Part shown: one piece after another, positions 8,362-50,638 of the stretch
How the letters are laid out: the number at the start of each line of letters is the position of its first letter
Numbering within the stretch: the first letter of the stretch is position 1
Source of the DNA: an uncultured Desulfobacterales bacterium
GTDB lineage: Bacteria; Desulfobacterota; DSM-4660; Desulfatiglandales; HGW-15
Assembly: GCA_964450535.1 (NCBI GenBank)
Contig: CAYVDE010000004.1
Location: 9,083-73,082 of the forward strand
DNA length: 64,000 bases
Direction of reading: 5' to 3'
Position numbers and translations under genes: made by a program
The notes under the pieces: model-generated
What the model was told of the DNA's origin: nothing
The model's input: only the letters and a program-made list of their open reading frames with translations
Databases searched by the model: none

Positions 8362-8377
8362 TCAAGCCCTCCCATGG

Positions 8378-11944: not shown

Positions 11945-12988
11945 TCATCTTTGGTAAATATAATCACCCGTGAATGGGAGTAAAGGCTCAATCCGTTCCA
12001 GGGCTGAGCGAGCTGCTCCAATTAGAGCGGTTTTCTGGTCAAGGACTACCCTGACGGCGATTTTTTCCATGAGCGGCCTGAACCTGCCTTTGTCCATGAA
12101 AGCTTCAAGGAATTGTCCCTCCTTCAGGATCGGCAGAATCCTGGGTGGAATCCCTCCCCCCAGGTATACCCCGCCCGTGGTCATACCCATGAGTGCGACG
12201 TTCCCTGCCGCAGCCCCCAGAATGGATGAGAAGCAGCGCAGGGTTTCGAGACACAGTGGATCGTTTCCCTCGATCGCAGCCCGTGTGATGGCGGCCGGCC
12301 GGTCTCCGTTTTCGATCAGACGCGCGAGCCCTGAAGTTTCGGGGTGCCTCCCGGACTCCCGCAGCCACTCAAAAACATTGACCAGCCCGGGACCGGACAA
12401 TATCCGCTCCAGGCTCACGTGTCCGAACCGTCCTCGAAGATACCGCCACAAAGCGACTTCGTTGTTATTGGAGGGAGCGAAGTCCATGTGACCGCCTTCC
12501 GAAGGCAGGGGCTCAAATCCGTCTTTTCGGTTCAGCATAAGGGACATGCCGAGTCCGGTTCCCGGCGCTAGGAGGGCGCGGTTCAGACCGGGCCTGATTC
12601 CGGTGCGGTTGAGGGCTGCGAATTTTCTGTTTCCAAGTGAGGGAATGCCGTTGGCCATGGCAGTAAGATCGTTGACCAAGAGTACGTGCGGCCACCCAAA
12701 GCGCGATCTCAGTTCATTTTCGGAAACCGTCCAGGGAAGATTGGTGGTGCGGCAGCGGCCCCTGCTCACCGGGCCGGGGACTCCGAAACATGCGGAAGAG
12801 ATAAGGTAAGGGCGCTTCTCGATGAAGCGGGCCAACAGGTCGCCCAGGCTTTTTGCCTCGCGGCTGGGAATGGTGTCGTGCTCCATTAGTTGAAGGCCTT
12901 TTTCTCCATATGTAAAGATCCCGAGGATGGTCTTTGTCCCGCCCACATCTCCTGCAAGCACCAGGTGTTTTTTATCGCCGGTGATCAA
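11945..12988 (-). CDS. glk: Glucokinase
   Basis: It has the ROK/Glk N-terminal ATP motif LAGDVGGTKT and is 347 aa long. The start is TTG with GGAGGA upstream. It is the last gene of zwf-pgl-glk. Confidence 0.85.
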   Translation of the reverse strand: MITGDKKHLVLAGDVGGTKTILGIFTYGEKGLQLMEHDTIPSREAKSLGDLLARFIEKRPYLISSACFGVPGPVSRGRCRTTNLPWTVSENELRSRFGWPHVLLVNDLTAMANGIPSLGNRKFAALNRTGIRPGLNRALLAPGTGLGMSLMLNRKDGFEPLPSEGGHMDFAPSNNNEVALWRYLRGRFGHVSLERILSGPGLVNVFEWLRESGRHPETSGLARLIENGDRPAAITRAAIEGNDPLCLETLRCFSSILGAAAGNVALMGMTTGGVYLGGGIPPRILPILKEGQFLEAFMDKGRFRPLMEKIAVRVVLDQKTALIGAARSALERIEPLLPFTGDYIYQR

Positions 12989-13008
12989 CGTTTATCCTCC
13001 GTTGTAAT

Positions 13009-13737
13009 TCAATTTCCGCTTTTAGTTCCCGTAAGCCTGGAAGCCGCTTCGGCGTCAATGAGCCAGGTTGGGGCCCCGGAGATTTGTGATGCTGGAAGAC
13101 GGGTGTCTTTGGTTTCGAGTACGGCTCGGACCGCGTGCGCCTTTGCCCGGCCTGAGACCCCGAAGACCTTGCTTGCGGCGGAATTCAGCACGGGGAGGGT
13201 GAGTGTAAGCCGGTCGATCCTTGGAACGCCGCCCCTCACAGGGACGACCAGGCGTTCGGACTCGTTGAGTGCCGGATCGCCGGGGAAAAGAGAAGCCGTG
13301 TGCCCGTCGTTTCCAAGGCCCAGAAGTACCAGATCGAATCCTGGAAGGGAACCAGGAGGCAATTCAAAAATGCGGGCCAGCAGCCGCTCATACTCCACAG
13401 CTCCCGAATCCGGAGGTTGTTCGACGGGCATGGGAAAGATATTTTTTCGTGGAATGGGTACCCTGTCAAGGAGGTCCCGGCAGGCGTTACCGTAGTTGCT
13501 GGCCGGATCCTCCGGATTGACGCAGCGTTCGTCCACCCAGAAAACAGAGGTGAACTCCCAGGGGAATGAGGAACAGAAAGGTTCACCTGCCAGTAGCCTG
13601 TGAGCGGCCCGCGGCGTGGAGCCTCCGGAAAGGGCCACTGAGAAAAGGCCCTGTGTGGACACGCAGTGTGAGGCAGTGTGCAGTATGAAGTCCGCCAGGG
13701 CCCGGGAGAGCCCGAATTCATTAGGGAGAATGGTCAC
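13009..13737 (-). CDS. pgl: 6-phosphogluconolactonase
   Basis: The motifs ALSGGSTP and GLGNDGHTASLFPG are present. The start is GTG. Confidence 0.85.
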   Translation of the reverse strand: MTILPNEFGLSRALADFILHTASHCVSTQGLFSVALSGGSTPRAAHRLLAGEPFCSSFPWEFTSVFWVDERCVNPEDPASNYGNACRDLLDRVPIPRKNIFPMPVEQPPDSGAVEYERLLARIFELPPGSLPGFDLVLLGLGNDGHTASLFPGDPALNESERLVVPVRGGVPRIDRLTLTLPVLNSAASKVFGVSGRAKAHAVRAVLETKDTRLPASQISGAPTWLIDAEAASRLTGTKSGN

Positions 13738-17703: not shown

Positions 17704-18963
17704 ATGAAGTCATATAAGACGGTGAACCACCGGGATGTTCCTCTGTTCAAGGATGTGCCTGATGAGGATTGGAACGACTGGAAGTGGCAGTTCCGGAATA
17801 CTATTCGAGACCTCAACGCCCTTGAGAAGATCATTCGCATAGATGAGGACGAGGGGCGTGACCTCGAGAGAGTCCTTAAGACCTTCAGAATGAGTATCAC
17901 GCCTTACTATGCCTGCCTGATGGATCGTGAATACAGGCGCGGCTCCGTAAGGCTTCAAGGCGTGCCGAGCATTCACGAACTGGCCTACGATCCCGACGAT
18001 CACGAAGACCCCCTGGATGAGGACGTGGACTCCCCGGTCCCCGGCATCACCCACCGCTATCCCGACAGGGTCCTGTTCCTGGTCACCCGCATCTGCTCCA
18101 TGTACTGCCGTCACTGCACGCGGAGGCGCATGGTCGGTTCACAGGACGAGCATTTGAGCGGCAAGGACATGGAAAGGGCTTTTGCTTACATCGAGGATCA
18201 TTCTGAGATCCGTGACATACTGATTTCAGGAGGGGATCCTCTGGTCCTTGACGACGAGTCCCTTGAGGCAATACTTAAACGCCTGCGCAGGATCGATCAC
18301 GTGGAGATCATACGAATCGGCAGCCGCACGCCGGTGGTCCTGCCCCAGAGGATCACGGAAGACCTGGTAAGCATGCTGCGCAGGTATCATCCTCTATACC
18401 TTAACACGCACTTCAACCACCCGGCCGAGATAACCCGGGAGTCCAGGGACGCCTGTGCACGGCTCGCAGATGCGGGCATTCCCCTGGGCAACCAGACAGT
18501 CCTCTTGAGGGATGTCAACGACTGCCCGTACATTATGAAAAAACTGGTTCACGAACTCCTCATGATCCGCGTGAAGCCTTACTACATTTACCAGTGCGAC
18601 CTTTCCAGGGGCATAGCGCACTTCAGGACGTCCATCACCAAGGGCATGGAGATTATAGAAAACCTGCGCGGTCACACCACGGGCATGGCCGTGCCCACAT
18701 TTGTGGTCGACGCCCCGGGCGGTGGCGGTAAGATTCCTGTCATGCCGAATTATATCCTCTCACAGGGCGACCGCCGTCTCGTGCTTCGCAATTACGAGGG
18801 TGTGATCACGACCTACACGCAGCCTGAGAACGTTTTTTCGGATTGCGGTCATTGTAACATCTGCGAGGATGAACGATATAAGCCCCTGGACGGGGTGGCG
18901 AAACTGCTTGCCGGGGAAAAGCTTTATCTCGAGCCCGCGGAACTCAAAAGGCGCAGGAGATAG
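17704..18963 (+). CDS. kamA: L-lysine 2,3-aminomutase (radical SAM/PLP)
   Basis: The cluster motif CSMYCRHC is at nt 18094-18117. ISGGDPL, the PLP-lysine block VVDAPGGGGK and a C-terminal Zn Cys cluster are also present. Acidic residues sit at both positions I recall as binding the lysine epsilon-amine in LAM (the D in VND and the D in VVDAP). Confidence 0.9.
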   Translation: MKSYKTVNHRDVPLFKDVPDEDWNDWKWQFRNTIRDLNALEKIIRIDEDEGRDLERVLKTFRMSITPYYACLMDREYRRGSVRLQGVPSIHELAYDPDDHEDPLDEDVDSPVPGITHRYPDRVLFLVTRICSMYCRHCTRRRMVGSQDEHLSGKDMERAFAYIEDHSEIRDILISGGDPLVLDDESLEAILKRLRRIDHVEIIRIGSRTPVVLPQRITEDLVSMLRRYHPLYLNTHFNHPAEITRESRDACARLADAGIPLGNQTVLLRDVNDCPYIMKKLVHELLMIRVKPYYIYQCDLSRGIAHFRTSITKGMEIIENLRGHTTGMAVPTFVVDAPGGGGKIPVMPNYILSQGDRRLVLRNYEGVITTYTQPENVFSDCGHCNICEDERYKPLDGVAKLLAGEKLYLEPAELKRRRR

Positions 18964-18985
18964 TGAAAACTGAAAAGGAGTGAAC

Positions 18986-20230
18986 ATGGAGGAAAAACTG
19001 AGGCTGGAAGAATCGGAAAGGCTCTATCATGAGGCCCTCGACCTCGTTCCGGGTGCAATCCTGGGAATTAGAAGACCTTACAATTTTGTGCCCGGCGAGT
19101 ACCCCGTATTTTTCGAATCCGCAAAAGGGGGACGCGTCACGGACGTTGACGGCAATGAGTACATCGACATGCTCTGCGCCTACGGCCCCATCATCATCGG
19201 CCACAGGGAGGAGGAGATCGACAACGCCGTGATCGATCAGATGCGGAACAAAGGGTTCTGTTTTTCCCTGACACAACCCATGCAGAACAACCTGGCGCGG
19301 AAGATGCGCGAGTTGATACCGTCAGCGGAAATGAGCCTTTTTCTCAAGACAGGATCCGACGCGACGACCGCCGCAATCCGGATCGCCCGGGGGCACACGG
19401 AGCGGATGAAGATCGCTCGGTGCGGTTATCACGGGTGGCACGACTGGTGTGTTGAGGTCAAGGGAGGCATCCCTAAGAAGCTCTACGAGGATATCTACGA
19501 ATTTCACTATAATGAGTTGGATGAACTCGAAGACCTCATGAAGGTCCATGGGGACGACATGGCGGCGATAATAGTGACGCCTGTCGGGCACCCGCTGGCC
19601 GAGAAGGTGCAGGAACCGGAACCCGGGTTTCTTGAAGGAGTGAAGACCCTGGCCGAGAAGTACGGGGCGGTCCTGATCTTCGACGAGATTCGAAGCGGGT
19701 TTCGTTTCGGCCTGGGCGGGGCGCAAAAGGAGTACGGCATTACGCCCGACCTTTCCGTGTTCGGCAAGGCCATGGCCAACGGCTATCCTATAAGCGCCGT
19801 CGTGGGCCGAAGGGAGGTCATGATGGCGGCTGCGGACCGGGTTTTTATCAGCTCGACCTTTTTCCCCAACAGCCTGGAGCAGGTGGCCGCCATTAAGACC
19901 ATCGAGATCCTGGAACGGGACCGGATCCTTGAAAAGGTCTGGGAAAAGGGGCGGCGCTTAGGCGAGCAGATCGAACGTATAGTCAAGGACAGCGGGGTGC
20001 CGGTTGAGTTCTCCGGGGCCCCCCTGATGCCATTCATCACGTTCCCGAAAGACAAAGACGGAAGATACAAGCAGCTGAGGACCGAGTTCTACACCAGGGT
20101 CATCCGTCGAGGGGTGTTCCTGCAGCCCTATCACCACGGGTATGTGGCATACCGCCATAAGGATGAGGATCTTGATTATACGGCCTCGGTTATTCGAGAG
20201 TCCCTCGAAGAACTGAGGTCGCTGGCCTGA
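18986..20230 (+). CDS. Class III PLP-dependent aminotransferase/aminomutase (glutamate-1-semialdehyde 2,1-aminomutase-like)
   Basis: DEIRSGFR and the PLP-lysine block SVFGKAMANGYP are present, and the protein is collinear with the GSAM family. The ATG at 18986 is preceded by AAAGGAG. Confidence 0.85.
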   Translation: MEEKLRLEESERLYHEALDLVPGAILGIRRPYNFVPGEYPVFFESAKGGRVTDVDGNEYIDMLCAYGPIIIGHREEEIDNAVIDQMRNKGFCFSLTQPMQNNLARKMRELIPSAEMSLFLKTGSDATTAAIRIARGHTERMKIARCGYHGWHDWCVEVKGGIPKKLYEDIYEFHYNELDELEDLMKVHGDDMAAIIVTPVGHPLAEKVQEPEPGFLEGVKTLAEKYGAVLIFDEIRSGFRFGLGGAQKEYGITPDLSVFGKAMANGYPISAVVGRREVMMAAADRVFISSTFFPNSLEQVAAIKTIEILERDRILEKVWEKGRRLGEQIERIVKDSGVPVEFSGAPLMPFITFPKDKDGRYKQLRTEFYTRVIRRGVFLQPYHHGYVAYRHKDEDLDYTASVIRESLEELRSLA

Positions 20231-20357
20231 TCCAAGAACCCCCGTTACCTAAAATTGCTTTTGGATTGACACATTTGAGCTCCTTAGATAGGTTTCGCCT
20301 TATCCCCCACCTTGCCGGTGGTCCAATGCCGGATTTTTCGAAAGGATTGCTAAGACC

Positions 20358-22808
20358 ATGCAAGACATCGCCTTTGAATCATCCGAGGAACAGGTCGAGG
20401 TGCCTGTGGCTGAACTCGTTGCGGAGGCCCTGGATTTCCTCAACAACTCAGCGGAAAGGCCTTTGGTGCCGGCTGAATTCATGGATCTTGTTGGAGACGG
20501 GGACGGTGGATCCAGGTTCAACCGGCTCCTTGAAGCCGCCGGCTTTGCAGATGACCCGGCCGGTTTCTTTGAATCCCTCATGAGAGCCGTAGCGCGGGGA
20601 GATGCCCGGGGCCGAGGGCCGTTTCAGATCAACGGAGTGGACATCCCCGGCCGGTTCATTGTGGCCCTCCTGGAGCGGACGGAGCCGGGGAATGAGTTCA
20701 TTTCCGTGCGGAATGTTGACCAACTGGAAGACATAGCCAAAATCCATATGGAAGAGGATAGGCGGGATGACATCCAGAAGGTCATAGACCTTTATCCTGT
20801 CAGGCTGTCAAGGCACACAGCCCGCCAGATGATGGTCTCGCGGGACGTGGCCTACCAGTACCTGCCTTTTGTGGAAGAGCTGGATCCTGTGGGACACGTG
20901 AACACCTGGATTGGACAGTTTCACCAGGGACTGCTGGAGCGGATGTATCGCAACCGCGTCATCTTTCTCCTGAACATGACTTGCCCGGTGTATTGCCGGT
21001 TCTGTTTCCGTAAGCACAAGGAGTCGCGAAATGAGACCTCCCCCACCCCGGATGAGGTCAGGGAAGCGGTGGCTTATGTAAATGCCTCGCCCACCATCAA
21101 GGAGATTGTAATCACAGGCGGGGACCCGTTTCTCAATAAAAAGAACATGGAGGTGGCAATCGATGGTCTCAGAGATGTCCCTCACGTCAAGACACTGCGG
21201 CTCGCCACCCGGTCCATTGCATACTACCCGCACCTTTTCCTTTCCAACGACGGTGCCTGGCTCAGCTACCTCAAGCGGAAGAACCTCGAGTTGGAGGAGA
21301 AAGGGAAGCGAATAGAGGTTGCCACCCACTTCATCCATCCGGATGAGGTGTCCCCGGACAGCCTGGAGATCATTTCCGAGCTGGTCCAAAGCGGCATACA
21401 GGTCTACGTGCAGACTCCCTTCCTCAATGACTGCAACGATCGGGGTCCCGAACTCGCTGAACTCTTCAGCAGCTTGAGGGGCGCCGGTGCCGAGATGCAC
21501 TATATCTACATTCCCTGCAGCCCGATTCACGGAAACAGCATTTACTGGGCCCCGCTTTCCAAGGGCATAGAGGCCGGCATTTACCTTAGAGCCCACGTTT
21601 CGGACCGGGCCATTCCAAGGATCTGCACGGCCACGCCCATCGGAAAAATGGACTGGAACAGCAGCGGCTGGGCCGTTGGGCGGGACCGGGAAAACGAGAA
21701 CTTCATATGGATCCGCTCCCCTTACACCCCGGACTACTTCAACGCCTTCGCCCCTGTTGCGAATGAACTGGAGAACGTCCGCGTCAACGACGAAGGGACC
21801 CTCGATGTAAAATACATGGCCCAGATAGGCGACGATGCGCTTTTCGCCGGTTCAAGGGTCCCGAGGCATCCTCTGAACGGAAAGACCGATCCCGGACTCC
21901 TGAATACCGTTCGCGCTGAGGGATTAAAGGACCAGCGATTCGCTCGTCCGGTTGTCTCTTCCGGTGTGCAAGGGGTTGTGCGGGTCCACGAGACACGGGC
22001 GGAGCTGGACATTGACCGCTTTAAGGCCGGAATAGATTATATTCGAAGGAACGGGCACATCACCGACGTGGTTGTTGCGGGGAAGCGGGACGGGATCGAC
22101 AGCTTGAGGGAGGTTCGGGATATTGTCAAGCACCTCCGCGACATTTCCCATGTCAATTCGGTCAGGCTTCGAAGCCTCGCATTCGCCGAAAACCCGAGTG
22201 CTTACACCCGCAGTGTTATCCGCGAACTGGCCGAACTGAACAGATTGACCGTGACAAGGCCCCTCCGGCTCGAGATCGAGACATTGTTTTTTCATGGCGA
22301 CGAATTTCTGGATGAGCACAAGAGGAAGGCCGCCCTGCTGCGAAGAAAAGGCATATCCGTTTACGTTAATACTCCGATTATTTCAGGAGGCAACGACAAT
22401 CCCGAAGAGATCCAGCGGGTGGCTTATTTGTGCAGGGATACAGGTCTTGAATTTCATCACGTTTACGCCTCCGGCCATCCCTTGCAGACGTCCCTGAACG
22501 ACGAGCGCCCCTTGGACGTGGACGATGTCCTGGATATTGCCACACTTGTCAGACGTGACGGCAGTGGCCGGGAGATACCGGCATACATACTGCAGACGGA
22601 GCTGGGCGAGGTGGACTTCGGCCTCTCATCCAGATTTGTTGAACGTGAAGGCGGGCTTTGGGCCCGGTTGCTCCCATATGACCTGGCCTACTTTCGGGCC
22701 ATGGACCCTGAATACAACTGGCCTGAAGGTGTGATAACAGACGAGAACGGCTGTCCGGTGGTTCCGGTGCCGGGTCTCGTTTCCAACACTGGGTTCATGG
22801 TGTCCTGA
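20358..22808 (+). CDS. KamA-family radical-SAM protein, 816 aa, with tandem KamA-fold modules (the second is degenerate)
   Basis: Module 1 has CPVYCRFC (Cys209/213/216, nt 20982-21005), ITGGDPF, HVKTLRLATRS, VATHFIHPDE, VQTPFLNDCND and TPIGK. Module 2 (from about nt 21970) repeats the same block order (ITDVVVAGKRDG, HVNSVRLRSLAF, LEIETLFFHGDE, VNTPIISGGNDN, ILQTELGEVDF). It has no Cys triad and no lysine at the PLP position. Confidence 0.8.
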   Translation: MQDIAFESSEEQVEVPVAELVAEALDFLNNSAERPLVPAEFMDLVGDGDGGSRFNRLLEAAGFADDPAGFFESLMRAVARGDARGRGPFQINGVDIPGRFIVALLERTEPGNEFISVRNVDQLEDIAKIHMEEDRRDDIQKVIDLYPVRLSRHTARQMMVSRDVAYQYLPFVEELDPVGHVNTWIGQFHQGLLERMYRNRVIFLLNMTCPVYCRFCFRKHKESRNETSPTPDEVREAVAYVNASPTIKEIVITGGDPFLNKKNMEVAIDGLRDVPHVKTLRLATRSIAYYPHLFLSNDGAWLSYLKRKNLELEEKGKRIEVATHFIHPDEVSPDSLEIISELVQSGIQVYVQTPFLNDCNDRGPELAELFSSLRGAGAEMHYIYIPCSPIHGNSIYWAPLSKGIEAGIYLRAHVSDRAIPRICTATPIGKMDWNSSGWAVGRDRENENFIWIRSPYTPDYFNAFAPVANELENVRVNDEGTLDVKYMAQIGDDALFAGSRVPRHPLNGKTDPGLLNTVRAEGLKDQRFARPVVSSGVQGVVRVHETRAELDIDRFKAGIDYIRRNGHITDVVVAGKRDGIDSLREVRDIVKHLRDISHVNSVRLRSLAFAENPSAYTRSVIRELAELNRLTVTRPLRLEIETLFFHGDEFLDEHKRKAALLRRKGISVYVNTPIISGGNDNPEEIQRVAYLCRDTGLEFHHVYASGHPLQTSLNDERPLDVDDVLDIATLVRRDGSGREIPAYILQTELGEVDFGLSSRFVEREGGLWARLLPYDLAYFRAMDPEYNWPEGVITDENGCPVVPVPGLVSNTGFMVS

Positions 22809-22965: not shown

Positions 22966-24009
22966 ATGATATCGAACTTCGGCCCTTTCCCGGCCCGCGA
23001 AGACGGGCTCATAACGGTGGACCTGCATGCCGCCGGGGAACCCCTGCGCCTTATGGTGGGCGGTCTGCCCGACATCCCCGGAGGCACCTTGCAGGAGAAG
23101 AGGCTCTACCTCCAGGAAAATCTGGACTGGGTCCGGCTGCTTCTCACCAGGGAGCCTCGAGGCCACCGGGACATGTTCGCGGCTGTGGCCACCGAGCCCG
23201 CCGGCCAAGAGGGGAGCTTCGGAGTCGTGTTCATGGATGCCAGGCGTTATCCCTACATGTGCGGCCATGGTATCATCGCCGCCGTCACGGCTTTCATTGA
23301 GCTGGGCTGGACCAAGCCGCCCGTGAACCCCCCGTTTCTTACGGTGGACACTCCAGCAGGGCCTGTTCGCGCCTTTCCCCGCGTCCTCCGGAATGGAGCG
23401 GGAACGGTTCGCGTGGAATCAGTGGCTGTGGAGCTGGGTCCGGCCTTCGTATTTCAGCAGGAGCAGAAACTTTACCTGCCCGATTATGGGAGCGTCATGG
23501 TTGACGTGGTCTTTGCAGGCGGGTTCTTCGTGCTGGCGTCTGTCGAGCAGCTTGGGTTGACGCTCTCTTACGATCGTTTGCAAGAACTGGCCCGGCTGGG
23601 GATGGCCGTGATCGAGGAAGGGAACCGTAGCCTTAGGGTCAGGCACCCGGTGCTCGATCACATCCGTACTGTTGACGTGGCCGCCTTCTACGATCCGGCC
23701 GGTCATGAGGAGCAGAGAGGTAAAGGATTCGTGGTACTGGGTGAGGGGCATGTTGACCGGTCACCTTGCGGCACCGGGACCTCGGCCAAGATGGCTCTGC
23801 TTCACCGGCAGGGGCTCCTGCCGACAGGGAGTGTGTTCGAGAACTCCGGGCTCACCGGCACGACATTTATGGGGCGGATCGTTCGCGAGACCGAAGTCGG
23901 GGGGATTCCAGCAGTGGTCCCTGAGATTCGGGGGTCGGCCTGGATTACTGGATTTCATCGGTTCGTGACGTCCCCGGACGATCCGTTTCCAGAGGGGTTT
24001 CTGGTATAA
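22966..24009 (+). CDS. Proline racemase superfamily enzyme (Cys/Cys type: proline racemase or 4-hydroxyproline 2-epimerase)
   Basis: The motifs DLHAAGEPLRLMVGG, YPYMCGHG and DRSPCGTGTSA are present. Both catalytic positions are Cys. Confidence 0.85.
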   Translation: MISNFGPFPAREDGLITVDLHAAGEPLRLMVGGLPDIPGGTLQEKRLYLQENLDWVRLLLTREPRGHRDMFAAVATEPAGQEGSFGVVFMDARRYPYMCGHGIIAAVTAFIELGWTKPPVNPPFLTVDTPAGPVRAFPRVLRNGAGTVRVESVAVELGPAFVFQQEQKLYLPDYGSVMVDVVFAGGFFVLASVEQLGLTLSYDRLQELARLGMAVIEEGNRSLRVRHPVLDHIRTVDVAAFYDPAGHEEQRGKGFVVLGEGHVDRSPCGTGTSAKMALLHRQGLLPTGSVFENSGLTGTTFMGRIVRETEVGGIPAVVPEIRGSAWITGFHRFVTSPDDPFPEGFLV

Positions 24010-24011
24010 AA

Positions 24012-25433
24012 ATGAATCTATTGCGTCCATTTCGACGACTTGATGACAGCGACTGCAGCAAGCTTCACGAGGCGTCTCTTCACATTCTGGAGAGGACCGG
24101 GGTCCGGCTTCATCACCCCCCGGCGGTCCGGCTGCTGGAGAAGGCCGGCGCGCGGATATCAGAAGGGAACCGCGCTCGCATCCCATCAGGCCTGGTGGAG
24201 CGGGCCCTTGAGACCGCCCCCTCTACGATCACTCTTTTCAATCGTCATGGTGAGCCGGCTGTTGAGGCAGGCGGCTGTCGTTCGTATTTCGGCACCGGAT
24301 CGGATTGCCTGAACGTGCTTGATCACCGGACCGGAGAACGCCGCCGGGCCCGAATAAAGGACGTAATAGAAGGTGTGACGCTCTGTGACGCGCTTGATAA
24401 CGTAGACTTCGTAATGAGCATGTTCCTTCCTTCTGATGTTCCCCGCATGACGGCGGACCGATTCGCCATGCAGGCCATGCTCGAGCATACGACCAAACCC
24501 CTGGTGTTTGTGACCACGGATCCGGCAGGGTGCGAGGACGCCGTGGCCATGGCTGAAGTCGTGGCAGGAGGAGAGGATGCACTGCGGGAAAGGCCTCTTG
24601 CAGCCTGCTACATCAACGTGACAAACGGGCTGCAGCACAACCGGGAGGCCCTGGAAAAGCTGATGTTCCTCTCCGGCAAAGGCCTTCCCGTGACATACGT
24701 GCCGGTTTCTCTGGGCGGTGCGAGCGCGCCCGTCACAGTGGCCGGCGGCATGGCGTTGTGGAACGCCGGTTGCCTGGCCGGTTTAGTGATCGGGCAGTTG
24801 AACCGGCCCGGGTCCCCCTTCATCACGTCCGGGTGGGGAGCCAGCGCCCTTGACATGCGGACAGGTCTCAGCCCGTATGTGGAGCCTGAAAAGCAGTTCA
24901 TAGCCCAGGAACTGGCCCACTTCTACGGCCTTCCAATGTTCGCGTTCGGCGGCATTTCGGACTCCAAGCAGGTGGACGCGCAGGCGGGTGCCGAGGCTGC
25001 CCTCACTCTCCTTGCGAACGCCCAGGCCGGGAGTCACCTGGTGCACGACATGGGGTATCTCGAGTCTGGTCTCACCGGATCTCAGGCCCAGCTGGTGTTA
25101 TGTGATGAGTTGGTGGGGTGGGTACGCACGGCACTGTCCCCTTTGGAGATCACCGAAGAGACCCTGGCGCTGGATGTGATCGATGAGATCGGACCCGACG
25201 GGCAGTATCTTGACAGCCTGCACACCCTTCATCACTACCGGGACCGCTGGTATCCCGAGGTCATGGACCGGTCCGGGCATGAATCCTGGGTCGCCCGGGG
25301 CGGCAAGGACCTGGGCCGAAGGGCCGCGGAGCGTGTGGAGGCCCTCCTGGCGGAACACAGACCGGAACCCCTTCCGGACCAAGCCGCAGAACACATACAA
25401 GCCATTGTCGATCGCGCGGCAAAGAGATCTTAG
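24012..25433 (+). CDS. MttB-superfamily protein (trimethylamine methyltransferase family, non-pyrrolysine type)
   Basis: This is an uninterrupted 473-aa ORF with a family-typical N-terminus (LHEASLHILERTGVRLHHPPAVRLLEKAGARI) and typical length. It starts 2 nt after the upstream racemase gene. Confidence 0.75.
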   Translation: MNLLRPFRRLDDSDCSKLHEASLHILERTGVRLHHPPAVRLLEKAGARISEGNRARIPSGLVERALETAPSTITLFNRHGEPAVEAGGCRSYFGTGSDCLNVLDHRTGERRRARIKDVIEGVTLCDALDNVDFVMSMFLPSDVPRMTADRFAMQAMLEHTTKPLVFVTTDPAGCEDAVAMAEVVAGGEDALRERPLAACYINVTNGLQHNREALEKLMFLSGKGLPVTYVPVSLGGASAPVTVAGGMALWNAGCLAGLVIGQLNRPGSPFITSGWGASALDMRTGLSPYVEPEKQFIAQELAHFYGLPMFAFGGISDSKQVDAQAGAEAALTLLANAQAGSHLVHDMGYLESGLTGSQAQLVLCDELVGWVRTALSPLEITEETLALDVIDEIGPDGQYLDSLHTLHHYRDRWYPEVMDRSGHESWVARGGKDLGRRAAERVEALLAEHRPEPLPDQAAEHIQAIVDRAAKRS

Positions 25434-27052
25434 CGGCTGAACACCACCCGCCCGTCGAAGATGGTCATGTCCACGGAGGTCTCGATGATCTCCATGGGGT
25501 CCACGGAGAAGATGTCCCTGTCCAGGACGACCATGTCCGCCCGTTTTCCGGGTGAAATTGTTCCCAGTTCACCTGTAACGCCGTTCGCCTCCGCCGGTGC
25601 CAGGGTATAGCCGCGGACCGCTTCCTCCACGCTTATCCTTTCACGGGGGTACCATCCCCCTTCGGGGGAGCCGTCCCGCCGTTGACGGGTGACGGCCGCG
25701 TGGATGCCCACGAGCGGTCGCGGATCACAGACCGGCGAATCAGAGCTTAGCATGAGCGGAATACCGGCATCCAGCATGCTCCGATACGCGTAGGTCCATT
25801 GTCCCATTTCTCCTACGCAACTATCTATCATGTGGATGTCCAGAATCAAGTTATGTGGCTGCACACAACCCACCAGGTTTAGACGCGCCATGCGGTAAAG
25901 GTCCTCAGGCCGAATCATCTGTAGGTGCTCGATTCGGTGTGGGACGGCGGGGCGTGATGCGGGATCAATATCCTCAAAGGCTTTATCCCGTTTCACCGCC
26001 TCGAAAACTGAAATCAATTCCCGGTTGGCCCGGTCTCCTATTGCGTGAACCATGACGGCGAGCCCGGCCCGGTTCGCTTTAGTGATCCGTTCACGTAAGG
26101 CTTCCGGCGGGTAGAGGCTCATGCCCACACCACCATCCAGGTATGGGTCGATCATCCATGCGGTGCGCGCCCCCATTCCGCCGTCCATGAAGTATTTGAG
26201 GTGTCCCAACCTGAGTCTATCGTCTCCTAAGCCTGTGCGGATACCCAGGGCTTCCGCCTCATCCAGGCGTTCACCAGGAAGGCTCACCCAGCACCGCAGG
26301 TCCAGCTTTCCTTGCTCCCTGATCTGCTGCCAGGCGCGAAGGACGGGCGGCCCTTCCAGTCCTCCCATGAGCCGGACGTCGAATATCCCGGTCAACCCAT
26401 AGGAGTGGACTTCGGGAATGCCGTCCAGCATGGCCTCGTATACCCCGGCGGTGCCTGCCCTGTCTATGGCCGCCTTGATCAGGTTGGGAGCCAACTCACG
26501 GAGGATGCCGGTGGCACTTCCCGAGGTGTCCCTTGCAATGACGCCGGCGGGCGGGTCGGGCGTGCTGTCGTCGATGCCGGCCTCCTTCAGAGCGACTGAG
26601 TTGACCGTGGCCAGGTGAAGGTCACATCGCCAGAGCGCCACGGGGTGATCCGGCGCTACTCGGTCCAGGTCATGGCGTTCGGGCATGTGTTCGACTTCCC
26701 AGTCCGACTCGTTCCAGCCCTGTCCCACGATCCAGGCTCCCTGTGGAAGGTTGCGGGCGGCCTCCGCTACACGGTTTAAGAGGTCCTCCAGCGAGACCGT
26801 GTCGGCCAGGTTGAGCTGCTTCCGTCCCATGGACCAATCATAATAGTGGAAGTGGCTGTCCGTGAAGCCGGGCAGGACAAGCCTTCCTTCTAAGTCCTGG
26901 GTCTTGGTTCCGGATCGGGAGAGCGACGCTATTTCAGAGTTATCTCCTACGGCCAGGATCCGGCCGTTGCCCATGGCCACTGCCTGGGCCAGGGGGCGGG
27001 AAGGGTCCATGGTTCGAATGACTGCGTTTTGGAAGATGCGTTCCGGTTTCAT
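25430..27052 (-). CDS. Amidohydrolase (amidohydrolase-3 / YtcJ-like metal-dependent hydrolase)
   Basis: The N-terminal metal motif PGFTDSHFHY is present. It is 540 aa long with family-typical architecture. Confidence 0.8.
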   Translation of the reverse strand: MKPERIFQNAVIRTMDPSRPLAQAVAMGNGRILAVGDNSEIASLSRSGTKTQDLEGRLVLPGFTDSHFHYYDWSMGRKQLNLADTVSLEDLLNRVAEAARNLPQGAWIVGQGWNESDWEVEHMPERHDLDRVAPDHPVALWRCDLHLATVNSVALKEAGIDDSTPDPPAGVIARDTSGSATGILRELAPNLIKAAIDRAGTAGVYEAMLDGIPEVHSYGLTGIFDVRLMGGLEGPPVLRAWQQIREQGKLDLRCWVSLPGERLDEAEALGIRTGLGDDRLRLGHLKYFMDGGMGARTAWMIDPYLDGGVGMSLYPPEALRERITKANRAGLAVMVHAIGDRANRELISVFEAVKRDKAFEDIDPASRPAVPHRIEHLQMIRPEDLYRMARLNLVGCVQPHNLILDIHMIDSCVGEMGQWTYAYRSMLDAGIPLMLSSDSPVCDPRPLVGIHAAVTRQRRDGSPEGGWYPRERISVEEAVRGYTLAPAEANGVTGELGTISPGKRADMVVLDRDIFSVDPMEIIETSVDMTIFDGRVVFSR

Positions 27053-28086
27053 GGAAGAAAGCCTCCGGGAAAGGGATCGTCGGGTTCGATGTAAAAGGAG
27101 TGTAGGCCTGTTATGTGTGCGCTTCCACGGATTTCGATCACCACAGCAGGCACACCTCCTACATCTGTTTCAGTGACAATGCGCGCCTTGAACACTGTCC
27201 CGAGCGGGCTCGTGTTTTCGTAGATCCGGTCGATCCCGATTTTACCCCGCTGGTATAAAAGCGTCAGCTTGGCAGCCGTACCCGTCCCGCAAGGTGACCT
27301 GTCCATATGTCGTTCGCCGTATATCACCATGCTTTTCCCGCAAAGTGGACGCTCTGAATCTTCCTCGTAGAACTCCACCACATCCACCGTTGATACCTCA
27401 GGCCGCGTCGGATGGTGAACCTCCAGTTGTTGATCGGCGCTTTCAATGATAGTCATGCCCAGGTCTACGAGCCGCCTCGTGTTTTCCGGGGTGAGTGAAA
27501 GGCCTGTTCGTCGGATCGGGACCATCACGAAAAATCCACCCACGCAGACCGTGTCCACTTCTATACTCCCGAGACCCGGTACATCCAGAGTTTGGTCCAG
27601 GCCGTAAACGAATGACGGCACAGCCTGAATGGCAACCGACTCCACTTGCCCTTCACGGATACGAGCAAGGGCATCCATCGGACCGGAGGGAGTGTCTATG
27701 GTAATCGCGGTTTCGGGATCGCGCCGGTCGATGACCTCCGTGTCGAGAAGAGTGGTGACCGCGCCGATGGTGGCGTGCCCGCAGAGATACGGATAGCGCC
27801 GGGCGTCCATGTATATGAGACCGAAGGACGCCCCATCGGTCACCGGGTCTGTGATGGCGGCGGCTATCATGTCCCGGTGCCCTCTTGGTTCCCGCGTGAG
27901 CAGGAGACGCACATGGTCCAGGTTTTCCATGAAGTAGCGTCGTTTCTCCGCCATTGTGGAACCGGGTACTTCGCCGAATCCGCCCACAATAAGCCGGGTC
28001 GGTTCACCGGCGGTGTGGGAGTCAATGGTCACAAAAGGTTCGGGGAACCTTCGGGCCAGGGTCAGCCTTGCGCGATTGATATCCAT
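27049..28086 (-). CDS. Proline racemase superfamily enzyme (Cys/Cys type), paralog of 22966-24009
   Basis: The motifs DSHTAGEPTRLIVGG, YPYLCGHA and DRSPCGTGTAA are present. The shared block LLLTREPRGHRDM and the C-terminus DDPFPxGFL match the paralog. Confidence 0.85.
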   Translation of the reverse strand: MDINRARLTLARRFPEPFVTIDSHTAGEPTRLIVGGFGEVPGSTMAEKRRYFMENLDHVRLLLTREPRGHRDMIAAAITDPVTDGASFGLIYMDARRYPYLCGHATIGAVTTLLDTEVIDRRDPETAITIDTPSGPMDALARIREGQVESVAIQAVPSFVYGLDQTLDVPGLGSIEVDTVCVGGFFVMVPIRRTGLSLTPENTRRLVDLGMTIIESADQQLEVHHPTRPEVSTVDVVEFYEEDSERPLCGKSMVIYGERHMDRSPCGTGTAAKLTLLYQRGKIGIDRIYENTSPLGTVFKARIVTETDVGGVPAVVIEIRGSAHITGLHSFYIEPDDPFPGGFLP

Positions 28087-28293: not shown

Positions 28294-29406
28294 TTACCTT
28301 GTGGCGTTATCTCGGTGCAAAAGACCGCAGTCAATGGGAGGCGCGTGAATCAGGACGGAATCGCCCCGGCGGAACGGCTTGGAGCTGATTATGCTGATGG
28401 CGTGAAGTACGGTCCCGTTTTCAAGTTCCACGAAGTAGCTTACTTCACCCCCCATGTAACTGCGATCTTTGATTATGGCCTTGAAAGAGTTGATTTCAGG
28501 GGCCGAAGCGCCCTCCTTGTCCGGAAGGATGTCGAATTTCTGGGCGCGTATGACCAGTTCTACGGGCTCCCCCTGTTTCCACTCTTCAAGGTTAAGGGTG
28601 TAGAACTCGTTGCCGTCCTGGACTCGTACCTTGATGTAGTCCCCGTCGCGGCCCAGCACCTCGCCGTCCATGAAGTTGGAGTGTCCCAGAAAATCGGCTA
28701 CAAAGTGGTTCACCGGCTTGTTGTATACCTCCTCGGGATTCCCTTCCTGCTGCTTTCGCCCGTCCTTCATGACCACGATCTTATCGGACATGGACAGGGC
28801 CTCGCGCTGGTCATGCGTCACAAAGATGGTAGTCACGCCGAGTAACTGCTGTAGATTGTCCACCTCACGGCGCATCTCCTCACGAAGGTTCTCGTCCAGC
28901 GCGGAAAGCGGTTCGTCCATGAGCAGGACCACAGGCTCGATGACAATGGCGCGGGCCAGGGCTATCCGCTGCTGCTGACCTCCTGAAAGCTGGGAAGGCA
29001 TCCGGTTTTCCACGCCGGGCAGCCGCACCATTTCCAGGGCGCGCTGAACACGTTCCCGGGTCTCCTGCTTGGGTACGTTACGGTACTTGAGGCCGAACGC
29101 CACATTCTCGAAAATGTTCTTGTGGGGAAAAAGCGCGTAGTTCTGGAATATCATCCCCAGGTTCCGCTTGTGGATGGGGGTGTCGTTCACACGCTTTCCC
29201 TTTATGAAGATATCCCCTTCGGTCGGTGTCTCCAGCCCGGCGATCATACGCAGGATGGTGGTCTTGCCGCAGCCCGAAGGCCCGAGGAGTGTGACGAGTG
29301 ATCCCTCCTCGAACTCGAGGTTCATCCGCTCCACCGCCACAACCTTGTCGAAACGCTTGTAGACCCCCTTGAGCTCAACCGCTAGGGACTTGCCTTGGTT
29401 ATTCAC
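28294..29406 (-). CDS. ABC transporter ATP-binding protein (PotA-like, with a C-terminal TOBE-like domain)
   Basis: Walker A (GPSGCGKTT), signature (LSGGQQQR) and Walker B (LLMDEPLSALD) are present. The start is GTG, preceded by AGGAGAG. Confidence 0.9.
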   Translation of the reverse strand: MNNQGKSLAVELKGVYKRFDKVVAVERMNLEFEEGSLVTLLGPSGCGKTTILRMIAGLETPTEGDIFIKGKRVNDTPIHKRNLGMIFQNYALFPHKNIFENVAFGLKYRNVPKQETRERVQRALEMVRLPGVENRMPSQLSGGQQQRIALARAIVIEPVVLLMDEPLSALDENLREEMRREVDNLQQLLGVTTIFVTHDQREALSMSDKIVVMKDGRKQQEGNPEEVYNKPVNHFVADFLGHSNFMDGEVLGRDGDYIKVRVQDGNEFYTLNLEEWKQGEPVELVIRAQKFDILPDKEGASAPEINSFKAIIKDRSYMGGEVSYFVELENGTVLHAISIISSKPFRRGDSVLIHAPPIDCGLLHRDNATR

Positions 29407-29535
29407 CTCTCACCGCTCTCCTGATCGGCGTTGGTCGGGAGTGCCGTCCCGATCCGCCGGTAGGGAAGGGGACGGCACAGGTTTCACGAACTGTCCAGGC
29501 TATGCCGTAAGGCCCTGCCTGGACAGTTCCTTATA

Positions 29536-30696
29536 TCAGCCTACTCTGATCCGGTCCCATTTCTCCGTCCACTCGAGCTCGTGCTTGTTCCAGTATTCGG
29601 GTTTGGCGAACAGGTAGCCCTCGAGCGTGCCTGTGGGATCAAAGGCAGGCATCTTCTGTACCTCAGGGGGCATCTCCACTTTGGTGGGGTCCAGGCTCGG
29701 CGGGTAGCCCTGGGCCTTGGCAACAGCGATGGCCGCCTCGGGTTCCAGCATGAAGTTGAGCAGCTTCTGGGCCACTTCCAGGTCTGTTCCCTTGAGCACG
29801 AACATGTACTCCATCCAGGAATAGGTGCCCTTGGGGGACAGGTAGCCTATGGGGTGGCCTTCCTGCTGCAGCGCGCCGACGCGGCCGGACCAGGCCACCG
29901 TGGCATAGATCTCATCGCCGGCCAGAAGGCTCATGAGTTCGGCGCCGGATTCCCAGTACTTTTTCATCAGCCCCCGCTGTTCCGTCAGTGCGTCCCACAC
30001 CGCGTCTAGGTCGGTGATGTTGTTGGGGCTCTGTCCCGTGTGAAGGGCCGCATACCACATGTTGGTCCTGTAATCCGCCCCCCAGCTTCCCAGCTTACCT
30101 TTGAGGTCCTTGTCCCAGAGCAGAGCCACTCCCAGTTTCTCGGCCTTTTCCTTTGAGATGTGCTTGGTGTTGTAAGCTATTCCGGTCTGGCCCAGGTCGT
30201 AGGGAACGGCTGAAAGCTTGCCGTCGCTCAGCCCACGGAGGGCGTTTATCATGGGTAGCATAACCTTCTCAAGGTTGGGGATCTTGGCCTCATCAAGGAC
30301 AACCCCGAAACCCAGGCCCATGTACCGGGCATAGTCGAACACTGCGCTCAGGTGGGCTATGTTGAACTCACCACCCGGCGGGTAGGAGGCCTTGACCTGG
30401 GTCAGAAAGGCGTCCATGCCCGTAAAGGCTGCGTCGACCACCTCGATACCGGTTTCCTTGGTAAAGGGCTCGAATGCATACTTGCGAAGGGCCTCCGAAG
30501 TGGTGCCGCCCCAGGAATCCACCCGGATTGACTTGGAGGCACGAGCGCTGCGGGTCAGCATGCCGAACGGTCCTCCCACCAGCCCGGCCGCGGCCCCGGC
30601 GATACCGAGGTACTTGATGAAGTCGCGGCGGGTGATCTCGCCGTCCCTGTAAAGCGCTGCCACGGTTTCCAGTTGTTCGTTCAAATCCCTGCTCAT
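29536..30696 (-). CDS. ABC substrate-binding protein (PotD/PotF-type) with a Tat signal
   Basis: A twin-arginine signal (ITRRDFIKYLGIAGAAAGL) is present, and the length and composition resemble SBP_bac_8. GGGAGG precedes the ATG. Confidence 0.8.
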   Translation of the reverse strand: MSRDLNEQLETVAALYRDGEITRRDFIKYLGIAGAAAGLVGGPFGMLTRSARASKSIRVDSWGGTTSEALRKYAFEPFTKETGIEVVDAAFTGMDAFLTQVKASYPPGGEFNIAHLSAVFDYARYMGLGFGVVLDEAKIPNLEKVMLPMINALRGLSDGKLSAVPYDLGQTGIAYNTKHISKEKAEKLGVALLWDKDLKGKLGSWGADYRTNMWYAALHTGQSPNNITDLDAVWDALTEQRGLMKKYWESGAELMSLLAGDEIYATVAWSGRVGALQQEGHPIGYLSPKGTYSWMEYMFVLKGTDLEVAQKLLNFMLEPEAAIAVAKAQGYPPSLDPTKVEMPPEVQKMPAFDPTGTLEGYLFAKPEYWNKHELEWTEKWDRIRVG

Positions 30697-30813
30697 GGCT
30701 TACCTCCCTTTCATACAGTAAAGTTGGCGATCGACAGGAGTTATGCGCCCACCGGTTCTCCGGCACCGGATAGCCTCCGTACGGCGTGTGTCCTGTCAGG
30801 GTTAATGTATCAA

Positions 30814-31605
30814 CTATTTTCCCCTGGCGAAGCGACGAGAGAGGTACCCCGCGAGCAGGGGTGTTGAGATTGTCAATATAATCATTACGGTCCCCAGGGC
30901 GTTGATCTCAGGGCTTATAGAGGTGCGCAGCATGCTGAAGATCTTTACCGGGACCGTCTGATTCTGGGCCGTGGCCCAAAAAAGTGTGGCCGTTACGTCA
31001 TCGAATGAGATGGTGAAAGAAAACAGCATCCCCGCCAGTATGGCAGGCATAAGCAGCGGCAGCGTGATCTCTTTGAAGGCCTGGAAGGGGTTTGCGCCGA
31101 GGCTCATGGCGGCCTCCTCATAAACGCGCTTTATGCCCACCAGCCTGGCCTGAACCACCAGCAGGACATAGGGCAGGGTGAGGACCACGTGTCCGATGAG
31201 CAGCAACGCAAAGCTCTTGGGCTGCTGGAGCCACCGGATGAACAGTAGGAGGGCCACGCCCAGCACCACCTCCGGGATCATGATCGGGGCCAGGAGCAAG
31301 GTGTTCAGGCTGTTCTTGCCGGGAAACTCGTAACGCACAAAGGCCATTGCCGCAGGAATCGCAATGGTGGTGGTCATTACGGCCGTCAGAGACCCCAAGA
31401 CGAGGCTGTTCTTGAAGGCGTTTATAATGGTCTCGTTCTGGGCGAGCTTGATGTACCATCGGAGGCTGAGTCCCTCCATGGGGAAGGACCCGAACTGCTG
31501 CGGGTTGAAAGACAGTATGACCACCGCCACAATGGGGGCGAACATCCAGATGTAGACCATGATCGTGAAGAGGCGTATCAGTGACCAGCCCGTTATTCTT
31601 GGCAT
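30814..31605 (-). CDS. ABC transporter permease (PotC-like)
   Basis: It is a multi-TM protein with the EAA loop EEAAMSLGANPFQAFKEITLP. Confidence 0.85.
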   Translation of the reverse strand: MPRITGWSLIRLFTIMVYIWMFAPIVAVVILSFNPQQFGSFPMEGLSLRWYIKLAQNETIINAFKNSLVLGSLTAVMTTTIAIPAAMAFVRYEFPGKNSLNTLLLAPIMIPEVVLGVALLLFIRWLQQPKSFALLLIGHVVLTLPYVLLVVQARLVGIKRVYEEAAMSLGANPFQAFKEITLPLLMPAILAGMLFSFTISFDDVTATLFWATAQNQTVPVKIFSMLRTSISPEINALGTVMIILTISTPLLAGYLSRRFARGK

Positions 31606-31615
31606 TGTGAATAAC

Positions 31616-32476: not shown

Positions 32477-32808
32477 GTCTCGCCGAAGGTGTATCGGGTT
32501 CCTGTTAGAAAAGGATGCCGGCGCTGCCGAATTCGAGCGCCGTTTGAGGAGGCTAAAACCATGCCTGACTCCTGTCAGGCTTGAAAGACCGTCCACACTA
32601 CGCTGAACCGGTCCCGGCGCGCACCTGGTCACCCATTGCCGCCTTAGACGTAATCATATAGTGGACATAACGCCAAGAGTCAAGGACAATTGAGGCTCTT
32701 CCAGGCATCGCTCTTGTCCAGAAAGCCTGTCCCGGTTCAAGATCGCCGTATTTTTGTAGTGCAGGGAGATAAACCACCCCCTCGATGCGGACTCTGGTTA
32801 CCTCTGCC

Positions 32809-40402: not shown

Positions 40403-40413
40403 TTTCAGGCCTC

Positions 40414-42487: not shown

Positions 42488-42759
42488 AATGATCCGCCTT
42501 TTGGAATAACGGATTGTTAGATGAATCAATTATTCTCCGGTGAAGAGGGTATGTCAAGAAGACGCGGTTGCCCCTGCGCCCTTGACAGTGGTCGATGGGC
42601 CCTGGTAGAAACCACCTTATAATAGGTACAATCCCCCGTTTACAGCCCACCTGGCGCCGGCCGGGAGAAATGTCCTGGAAACCGAAGTCGAAGCTCTCTC
42701 ATTGCGGATCTAAGCGCGTTAACGGGACCTGGAAACTTTTCAGGGCAAGGAAGAACAGT

Positions 42760-45062: not shown

Positions 45063-45064
45063 AC

Positions 45065-46887: not shown

Positions 46888-46909
46888 AGACCCAAGGAGG
46901 AAAAAGACA

Positions 46910-50635: not shown

Positions 50636-50638
50636 GCC

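Follow-up and report, generated by a model that had tools for sequence, protein, structure and literature searches.

Three consecutive genes on the forward strand of a 64-kb window (the whole stretch of DNA analyzed here, 64,000 nucleotides of contig CAYVDE010000004.1 from an uncultured Desulfobacterales bacterium) encode aminomutase-type proteins: the lysine 2,3-aminomutase KamA, a class III pyridoxal phosphate (PLP) enzyme, and dKamA, a tandem-duplicated KamA-like protein. We conclude that these genes are likely to represent two adjoining units, such that kamA and the class III gene, which we assign as kat, belong to a Kat-type lysine fermentation, and dKamA starts a separate transporter-linked module. 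The first-pass annotation of this DNA had instead suggested that the trio could be a branch processing a beta- or diamino acid; the coordinates, families, and split gene layout behind that proposal stood, but its functional reading mostly did not. The trio is thus mostly explained away, yet it leads to an uncharacterized, testable enzyme family (dKamA).

An open reading frame (ORF) check of the window placed three same-strand ORFs at 17704-18963, 18986-20230, and 20358-22808 and reproduced the stated spacings (17 nt from kamA to the class III ORF, 23 nt to its ATG, and 128 nt from its end to the third ORF); the family calls were upheld by Pfam and NCBIfam searches. The split layout is also real, since the remaining genes of the pathway, kamD, kamE, kce, kamB, and kdd, begin 23.6 kb past the end of kamA, each scoring above its NCBIfam equivalog cutoff. 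The features on which the argument turns are the following.

17704-18963, + strand: kamA, lysine 2,3-aminomutase (radical S-adenosylmethionine [SAM] and PLP), 419 aa; TIGR03820, PF12544 LAM_C, PF04055
18986-20230, + strand: kat, predicted 3-aminobutyryl-CoA:2-oxoglutarate aminotransferase orthologue; PF00202; ORF opens with GTG at 18980, likely start ATG at 18986
20266-20294, + strand: putative promoter-like motif TTGACA-N17-TAGGTT ahead of dKamA, from cross-genome conservation
20315-20332, + strand: short hairpin (6-bp stem) then a T-run, between the motif and the start codon of dKamA (kat-dKamA gap or leader)
20358-22808, + strand: dKamA, tandem-duplicated KamA-like radical-SAM protein, 816 aa; an identical 816-aa database protein exists
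42595-47926, + strand: kamD, kamE, kce, kamB, and kdd

kamA and a predicted kat gene of lysine fermentation

The kamA product is an ordinary lysine 2,3-aminomutase. It scores 599.8 bits against TIGR03820 (equivalog cutoff 525.4; NCBIfam) and 129 bits against PF12544 LAM_C, in addition to its match to PF04055 (Pfam). The motifs CSMYCRHCTR, YIYQCD, and VVDAPGGGGK are all found in the protein, which keeps CxxxCxxC and the equivalents of the carboxylate-binding Arg134, of Asp293 and Asp330 (epsilon-ammonium), and of the PLP Lys337; every defining motif is shared with KamA of Clostridium subterminale (PDB 2A5H).

Judged by its sequence relationships, the class III enzyme is an orthologue of Kat, and neither HemL nor a new enzyme. 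The first-pass annotation knew of no class III transaminase or aminomutase in the lysine pathway; the premise that none belongs there is wrong, since one was described in 2011: Perret et al. (2011) found that a 'HemL-like' protein is a 3-aminobutyryl-CoA:2-oxoglutarate aminotransferase (Kat), for which the thioester is required, and that a variant of lysine fermentation uses Kat instead of Kal, the 3-aminobutyryl-CoA ammonia-lyase (PMC3149608). The two verified versions of Kat, CLOAM0809 of 'Ca. Cloacimonas acidaminovorans' and the enzyme of a digester Bacteroidetes, share ~65% identity (PMC3149608). In a homology search, the window protein had full-length matches at 72-77% identity in Bacteroidales and Cloacimonadota, and one close relative carries the NCBI name 3-aminobutanoyl-CoA transaminase. 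A Bacteroidales relative (locus L086, 74% identical) sits in an AtoD-kat-kce-kdd-kamA-kamB-mutS-kamD-kamE-AtoA-thiolase cluster, and Cloacimonadota-type relatives (L087, 73%, and L091, 77% identical) sit in HSP33-thiolase-kat-kce; the gene layouts of the verified Kat enzymes match those seen in these three loci (PMC3149608). Moreover, the L086 and L087 proteins are 69% identical to each other, and the window protein is nearer to each of them (74% and 73%). Thus, it passes the ~65% full-length identity that links the verified Kat groups, as measured on these three proxies and not on CLOAM0809 itself. The predicted start at ATG 18986 is preceded by AAGGAG and is consistent with the length (414 aa) of a database protein identical to the window Kat.

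We considered that the class III gene might instead be the organism's HemL (glutamate-1-semialdehyde [GSA] 2,1-aminomutase), lying beside kamA by chance, an alternative that the first-pass annotation had also raised. The protein has the class III aminotransferase fold (PF00202, 187 bits; Pfam), its top NCBIfam matches are GSA-aminomutase models, as are many of its PDB matches, and some databases label its relatives accordingly. However, all of these NCBIfam matches are far under cutoff: 259.5 bits compared to 527.3 for TIGR00713, 273.4 compared to 398 for PRK00062, and 285 compared to 486 for the best GSA-like model. HemL identity also fits poorly with 73-77% identity to proteins embedded in lysine-fermentation clusters, and the identical mislabeling of Kat as HemL has been checked and corrected by experiment (PMC3149608). 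Curated cutoffs and gene context together rule out this identity in practice, and we give it almost no chance of being correct.

If the class III enzyme is Kat, then kamA and kat are part of the main lysine pathway and not a side branch. The cluster at 42595-47926 contains no kamA, kal, or kat, and the kamA-kat pair supplies two functions missing from this cluster, which lies 24 kb away. In the proposed scheme, KamA would convert L-lysine to beta-lysine, and Kat would convert 3-aminobutyryl-CoA and 2-oxoglutarate to acetoacetyl-CoA and glutamate, such that kamA-kat and kamDE-kce-kamB-kdd would jointly constitute the Kat variant of lysine fermentation, with Kat in place of Kal; kamA and kat are probably co-transcribed. 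The same set of genes (kamA, kamDE, kamB, kdd, kce, and kat) is found in canonical or Kat-type clusters (Fusobacterium; Bacteroidales L086), but in the window it is divided over two loci and AtoAD and thiolase are not found within the 64 kb. Likewise, the window enzyme resembles published Kat in its class III fold, its HemL-like appearance, and the company of kamA, kamDE, kdd, and kce with no kal inside the 64-kb window; however, published kat genes adjoin thiolase and kce or lie inside a full cluster, whereas the window gene pairs with kamA alone, 24 kb from kce and kdd. It also differs from the published cases in belonging to a Desulfatiglandales-type genome.

Thus, kamA and kat are already known, and their pairing apart from the remaining pathway genes is a layout variant. 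Since Kat-type proteins are still widely labeled HemL or generic class III aminotransferase, the kamA-kat result is mostly a correction, although it does carry the Kat variant of lysine fermentation into a Desulfatiglandales-type lineage. In the published sulfate-reducer case, the related strain NaphS2 has a Kat homologue (60% identical) but is without lysine-fermentation genes (PMC3149608), which do occur in the window.

Directly after kdd lies a polar-amino-acid ATP-binding cassette (ABC) transporter (48156-51358, +; ATPase, SBP_bac_3 binding protein, and two permeases), which could plausibly bring in lysine or ornithine for fermentation.

dKamA probably begins a separate module

To find out which genes accompany dKamA, we mapped the window proteins and recurrent neighbors onto loci from 80 species, each taken with at most 10 kb of sequence on either side. 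The check called for by the first-pass annotation, conservation of the three genes as neighbors, was passed in close relatives only: the kamA-kat-dKamA order occurs in L001, L002, L004, L085, and L090 besides the window, and L008 has kat-dKamA at a contig end. In L003, L006, and L009, the order is kamA-dKamA, with kat missing between them. These close relatives also share upstream rubrerythrin and KhpA genes, and thus common descent explains much of the shared order. In one sublineage (L085, 8055-8555, -; L090, 9181-9627, -), kamA and kat are separated by an inserted gene for a small GNAT acetyltransferase that is oriented the other way.

Among 52 distant loci, in which dKamA is <62% identical and the flank is at least 8 kb, the genes near dKamA were as follows.

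PotA-like ABC ATPase: 40 of 52
SBP_bac_8 binding protein: 39 of 52
Proline-racemase homologue: 38 of 52
IclR regulator, usually divergent: 37 of 52
M23-like 226-aa protein, immediately downstream of dKamA: 35 of 52
YtcJ-like amidohydrolase: 33 of 52
Class I/II aminotransferase: 17 of 52
AblB: 14 of 52
KamA: 1 of 52
Kat: 0 of 52

The gap between kat and dKamA contains sequences that may constitute a promoter plus a regulatory leader. The 11-mer TTTGGATTGACA, followed by TAnGnT 17 nt after TTGACA, is kept between diverging flanks in the window, L001, L002, and L004 (11-mer at 4905-4915 in L001, 9839-9849 in L002, and 9927-9937 in L004), and the 11-mer alone is also upstream of dKamA in L003 (8813-8823), where kamA, not kat, precedes it. 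In the hairpin that follows the motif, two substitutions in L001 turn G.U pairs into G-C pairs (stronger pairing). Since terminator and promoter scan counts for the region were not above those of shuffled sequences, only the cross-genome conservation of the motif was used as evidence. Rfam at gathering thresholds gave no match anywhere in the 64-kb window, in which no tRNAs were found either; thus, no riboswitch was called ahead of kamA or dKamA.

These results bear on whether the trio could after all be one functional branch, in which KamA makes beta-lysine, dKamA either moves an amino group a second time or uses another diamino acid as its substrate, and the class III enzyme transaminates the beta-amino product or its CoA ester. 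Several observations speak for such a branch and weigh against two separate units. The kamA-(kat)-dKamA order recurs in the window and the five relatives named above, and in two sublineages (L085 and L090) it is held although dKamA is only 63% identical, such that some functional coupling in the clade is conceivable. Only 43 nt separate kat and dKamA in L085, which makes co-transcription possible in some relatives. Kat also accepts other beta-aminoacyl thioesters in vitro (PMC3149608). In other lineages AblA and AblB, or AblB alone, lie near dKamA. Furthermore, the promoter and hairpin are no more than sequence motifs, with the scan counts given above. The Kat assignment has limits of its own: the orthology is based on close proxies rather than on the CLOAM0809 sequence, and the search for kal, atoAD, and thiolase covered the 64-kb window, which contains none of them. 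Against a single branch, Kat is never and KamA only once near dKamA among the distant loci, kat is missing in L003, L006, and L009, and the conserved upstream rubrerythrin and KhpA genes mean that the order may reflect common descent only. In addition, dKamA has its own conserved promoter-like motif, the trio is without a CoA ligase or transferase, and kamA and kat are exactly what the distant kamDE cluster is without. We therefore regard a single branch as improbable and consider two adjoining units likely, of which the second would comprise dKamA, the proline-racemase homologues, a non-pyrrolysine MttB, a YtcJ-like amidohydrolase, and a PotABCD-like importer.

dKamA is a duplicated KamA-like protein and a probable pseudo-dimer

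In dKamA, residues ~1-115 form an extra N-terminal domain, ~116-500 the catalytic KamA-like half, and ~540-800 a second, degenerate half of KamA type. NCBIfam searches detected two KamA-like stretches in the protein, but no KamA-family model reached its cutoff, not even the broad TIGR00238 (141.8 compared to a subfamily cutoff of 199.2). The duplication was evident from alignment of residues ~541-800 to ~217-482 (probability 99.5, E 4e-23, 27% identity; hhalign). The sole significant PDB relative, by sequence or fold, is lysine 2,3-aminomutase 2A5H, and the AlphaFold (AF2) model of dKamA is confident, with a pLDDT of 85.7 and a pTM of 0.90.

In KamA, Asp293 and Asp330 bind the lysine epsilon-ammonium, Arg134 binds the carboxylate, and Lys337 holds PLP; the enzyme is a homotetramer in which the partner-subunit interface is held by a zinc site. 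We compared these residues across 41 dKamA sequences, in which C209, C213, C216, R218, Y197, R200, K430, S388, and A425 are invariant. By alignment to 2A5H, C209/C213/C216 correspond to C125/C129/C132, R218 to R134, and K430 to K337, and Y197 and R200 are the PLP-contact Tyr and Arg. The N-terminal half thus appears to have retained everything that radical initiation with SAM and a [4Fe-4S] cluster requires, as well as the residues with which PLP would bind an alpha-amino acid. In contrast, Asp293 and Asp330 are replaced by S388 and A425, both invariant. The C-terminal half, which begins just past the cluster loop, is without the Cys triad, the carboxylate Arg, and the PLP Lys, and has Glu at the PLP-Lys position; it looks like a catalytically dead copy, which probably stands in for the KamA partner subunit. 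LAM_C (PF12544) was not matched in dKamA, and no zinc-type CxCxxC Cys motif was found beyond residue 440.

Thus, dKamA shares with KamA 2A5H the fold, the CxxxCxxC motif, the carboxylate Arg, the PLP Lys, and the PLP-contact Tyr and Arg, but differs in the Ser and Ala that replace the two Asp residues, the lack of the LAM_C zinc tail, the 115-residue N-terminal domain, and the fused dead barrel. On the basis of the cutoffs, the two Asp residues, and LAM_C, it is not a member of the lysine 2,3-aminomutases, and both its architecture and its neighborhood are distinct. We infer that its substrate is an alpha-amino acid other than plain lysine. Glutamate and arginine 2,3-aminomutases (TIGR04368, TIGR04468) provide a precedent for a KamA scaffold retuned by altered side-chain-binding residues; however, dKamA scores uniformly poorly against models of this type (139-157 bits compared to cutoffs of 525-650) and is twice their length. 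The searchable literature, whose coverage is incomplete, held no described function for the double KamA family.

The gene neighborhood of dKamA

Relatives of dKamA occur in at least 369 GTDB species representatives. A homology search gave more than 1000 matches, of which the best 120 are 738-867 aa long and 56-100% identical. The dKamA family combines a clear radical-SAM/PLP catalytic half with an unusual pseudo-dimer build and a stable gene neighborhood. Since there are cultured carriers (Desulfosarcina widdelii, D. alkanivorans, Desulfoferrobacter suflitae, and Desulfopila sp.), dKamA function is directly testable.

In the window, dKamA is followed by these genes.

22966-24009, + strand: ProRac1, proline-racemase-family paralogue 1 (Cys/Cys type); PF05544, 318.7 bits; MCGH and SPCGTG motifs
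24012-25433, + strand: MttB-family methyltransferase, non-pyrrolysine; PF06253, 316 bits; TIGR02369, 372 compared to a cutoff of 525
25430-27052, - strand: YtcJ-like (Amidohydro_3) metal amidohydrolase; PF07969, 361.7 bits; best PDB match 3ICJ
27049-28086, - strand: ProRac2, proline-racemase-family paralogue 2 (Cys/Cys type); PF05544, 340.9 bits; LCGH and SPCGTG motifs
28294-32632, - strand: PotABCD-like ABC importer of four genes (Pfam)
28294-29406, - strand: importer ATPase (Pfam)
29536-30696, - strand: importer binding protein, SBP_bac_8, with a TAT signal (Pfam); most similar to polyamine-binding proteins
30814-31605 and 31616-32632, - strand: importer permeases (Pfam)

ProRac1 is below all NCBIfam equivalog cutoffs and is also found after dKamA in L005, L023, and L089; the best PDB matches of ProRac2, whose gene overlaps the amidohydrolase gene by 4 nt, are true proline racemases. 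The closest PDB matches of the MttB protein are glycine betaine methyltransferases, and neither a cognate corrinoid protein nor a methylcorrinoid:tetrahydrofolate methyltransferase was found for it anywhere in the window. PDB comparison of the binding protein and MttB gave generic relatives only and left the ligand undecided. Literature searches on N-epsilon-acetyl-beta-lysine catabolism and on MttB-proline racemase-amidohydrolase modules gave nothing relevant.

Depending on the locus, the partners of dKamA are arranged divergently, convergently, or co-directionally. In Ca. Vecturithrix, dKamA-ProRac-amidohydrolase-permeases-binding protein-ATPase-MttB lie on one strand, with the MttB gene closing the operon. 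On an Anaerolineales contig (L084), dKamA is accompanied by importer, M23, and sarcosine-oxidase-like genes; in Desulfoferrobacter suflitae, the module is reduced to dKamA plus importer; and one lineage has a polar-amino-acid ABC system in the importer's place. AblB in dKamA loci, a putative beta-lysine N-acetyltransferase, scores 307 bits against TIGR03827 (cutoff 205); its gene adjoins dKamA or belongs to the importer operon, which it may close, and AblA is mostly missing. AblB-bearing loci include L089 (regions 8961-9827 and 12536-13411), L052 (3811-4662), and L069 (3727-4560), and AblA and AblB are adjacent in L039 (13142-15305). A search for AblA beside AblB with extra flank found none in L052, L069, L089, or L015; thus, a description of dKamA as part of an ablAB operon is true only for L039.

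In most Desulfobacterales loci, dKamA is followed immediately by a cytoplasmic-looking M23-like protein of ~226 aa (L077, 2632-3309, and 40 others; L084, 6153-6830; L088, 12635-13297), which is absent from the window. This protein keeps the HxxxD (HLGLD) and HxH (HTH) zinc motifs and matches the middle of PRK06148, a fusion of kinase, M23, and class III aminotransferase (NCBIfam). Together with an APH gene found in D. suflitae, the PRK06148 match hinted at chemistry of the hydroxylysine type, an idea that was set aside.

The slot after dKamA differs among close relatives, in that a bona fide ornithine aminotransferase (OAT) gene occupies it in sister genomes, ProRac1 and MttB occupy it in the window, and L005 appears to have all three. 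OAT (TIGR01885, 536 bits compared to a cutoff of 378) follows dKamA in L001 (~7670-8893), L004, L009 (9952-11154), L085 (12627-13832), and L090 (14274-15479). In L089 a gene of the dimethylarginine dimethylaminohydrolase (DDAH)/arginine deiminase (ADI) fold lies between dKamA and ProRac1, and in L084 D-amino-acid or proline-dehydrogenase-like genes come after dKamA.

A complete oxidative ornithine-fermentation operon (32809-41487, -) comprises Ord, OrtA, OrtB, an OraS-sized gap, OraE, a GlmL-like Or-4, and an Orr-like racemase, and it continues without a change of strand directly into the ABC, ProRac2, and amidohydrolase genes. The Orr-like racemase bears an arginase-fold C-terminal extension and scores 436.8 compared to a cutoff of 480; most genes of the operon are above NCBIfam cutoffs. 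A TrmB-family regulator (41690-42529) lies between this operon and kamD.

Candidate substrates of dKamA

Besides its intact catalytic half and its lost Asp pair, dKamA is steadily linked to an importer of the polyamine or basic-amino-acid kind, to two hydrolases, and to a Cys/Cys proline-racemase homologue. It may be a 2,3-aminomutase whose substrate is taken up from outside and is an amino acid without a free ammonium on the side chain. Our leading guess, to which we give a low probability, is that dKamA acts on an omega-N-acylated or carbamoylated diamino acid, e.g., N-epsilon-acetyl-lysine or N-epsilon-acetyl-beta-lysine, since a neutral omega-N-acyl side chain fits the Asp-to-Ser and Asp-to-Ala changes; the amidohydrolase would then strip the omega-N-acyl group. 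Chemistry on beta-lysine or a diamino acid is suggested by the adjacency of KamA in the clade, by AblB in 14 loci, and by an amidohydrolase family that includes epsilon-lysine acylases (PMC10699109). Of the first-pass proposals, among them a biosynthetic module for a beta-amino-acid-derived solute, a weaker form survives for dKamA: with AblB close by in 14 of the 52 distant loci and AblA-AblB close by in L039, a link to beta-lysine-type or osmolyte chemistry is possible.

A close parallel is the AblA/AblB pathway for N-epsilon-acetyl-beta-lysine in methanogens (TIGR03820, TIGR03827), in which a KamA-type mutase likewise works with AblB, and AblB genes are adjacent to dKamA in many Desulfobacterales loci. 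Unlike that system, the window has no AblB and dKamA is without the residues that bind the free epsilon-amine; moreover, the AblB genes near dKamA are embedded in a setting of importer, amidohydrolase, and IclR genes that looks catabolic or salvage-like. In its fullest form, the proposal is that dKamA founds an undescribed PLP/radical-SAM aminomutase class with a dead barrel as partner, that interconversion of N-epsilon-acetyl-beta-lysine and N-epsilon-acetyl-L-lysine is its leading candidate reaction, and that it provides the key step of importer-linked osmolyte salvage or remodeling in sediment Desulfobacterota and a few other anaerobes. Taken whole, this is a speculative proposal to which we assign a low probability. 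Several facts weigh against this choice of substrate: it gives no role to MttB, the M23-like protein, or either proline-racemase homologue, AblB was not found in the window (tblastn), the amidohydrolase is only 26% identical to the Streptomyces griseus epsilon-lysine acylase (SgELA; over 341 residues, E 5e-21), and direct deacetylation of N-epsilon-acetyl-beta-lysine would need no aminomutase. If the proposal were true, a methanogen-made osmolyte would be salvaged or remodeled, with lysine fed straight into the adjacent kamA-kat route in the source organism. A new aminomutase, or a turnover route for beta-amino-acid osmolytes in anoxic sediments, would interest both enzymologists and sediment microbiologists.

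The neighboring genes also suggest other roles. dKamA might serve ornithine or proline metabolism, e.g., as an ornithine or citrulline 2,3-aminomutase acting with the proline-racemase homologues, OAT, and the adjoining ornithine operon. This would account for the OAT gene directly after dKamA in five relatives (L001, L004, L009, L085, and L090), for proline-racemase homologues near dKamA in 38 of 52 loci, for the DDAH/ADI-fold protein in L089 and the D-amino-acid or proline-dehydrogenase-like genes in L084 that follow dKamA, and for the ord-ortAB-oraSE-orr operon that runs into the ABC/ProRac2/amidohydrolase genes. However, we identified no acidic residue to hold the ornithine delta-ammonium, BLAST with Orr, OraE, OrtB, and Ord found ornithine-fermentation genes in none of the other 80 loci, and the linkage to AblB would be left unexplained; we consider this role unlikely. 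It is a little more doubtful still that dKamA is not an aminomutase at all, but performs other radical chemistry (elimination, epimerization, or C-C rearrangement) on an N-methylated or cyclic import that is then processed by MttB, ProRac, and hydrolases. Its failure to reach any KamA-family NCBIfam cutoff, including that of TIGR00238, and its lack of the LAM_C zinc domain would fit such chemistry, as would MttB near dKamA in the window, L005, L009, and L083 and the sarcosine-oxidase-like genes in L084. In contrast, the PLP Lys, the PLP-contact Tyr and Arg, and the carboxylate Arg, which make up the set needed for a PLP-mediated 1,2-amino shift, are invariant, and polyamine- and LAO-type binding proteins are unusual for betaines. 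The MttB neighbor had also raised the idea of pyrrolysine salvage (an N-epsilon-acyl-lysine with a pyrroline ring), which was dropped as unsupported.

Other features of the window

Four genes at 59096-63737 (+) encode a 2-oxoacid dehydrogenase complex (E1 alpha, E1 beta, E2, and E3); the long minus-strand ORFs that overlap it, which have no Pfam matches, are probably spurious. The interval 54001-56000, where ORF 54294-55217 (-) has no Pfam match, may be foreign DNA, with a GC content of 0.446 compared to ~0.56-0.62 elsewhere.

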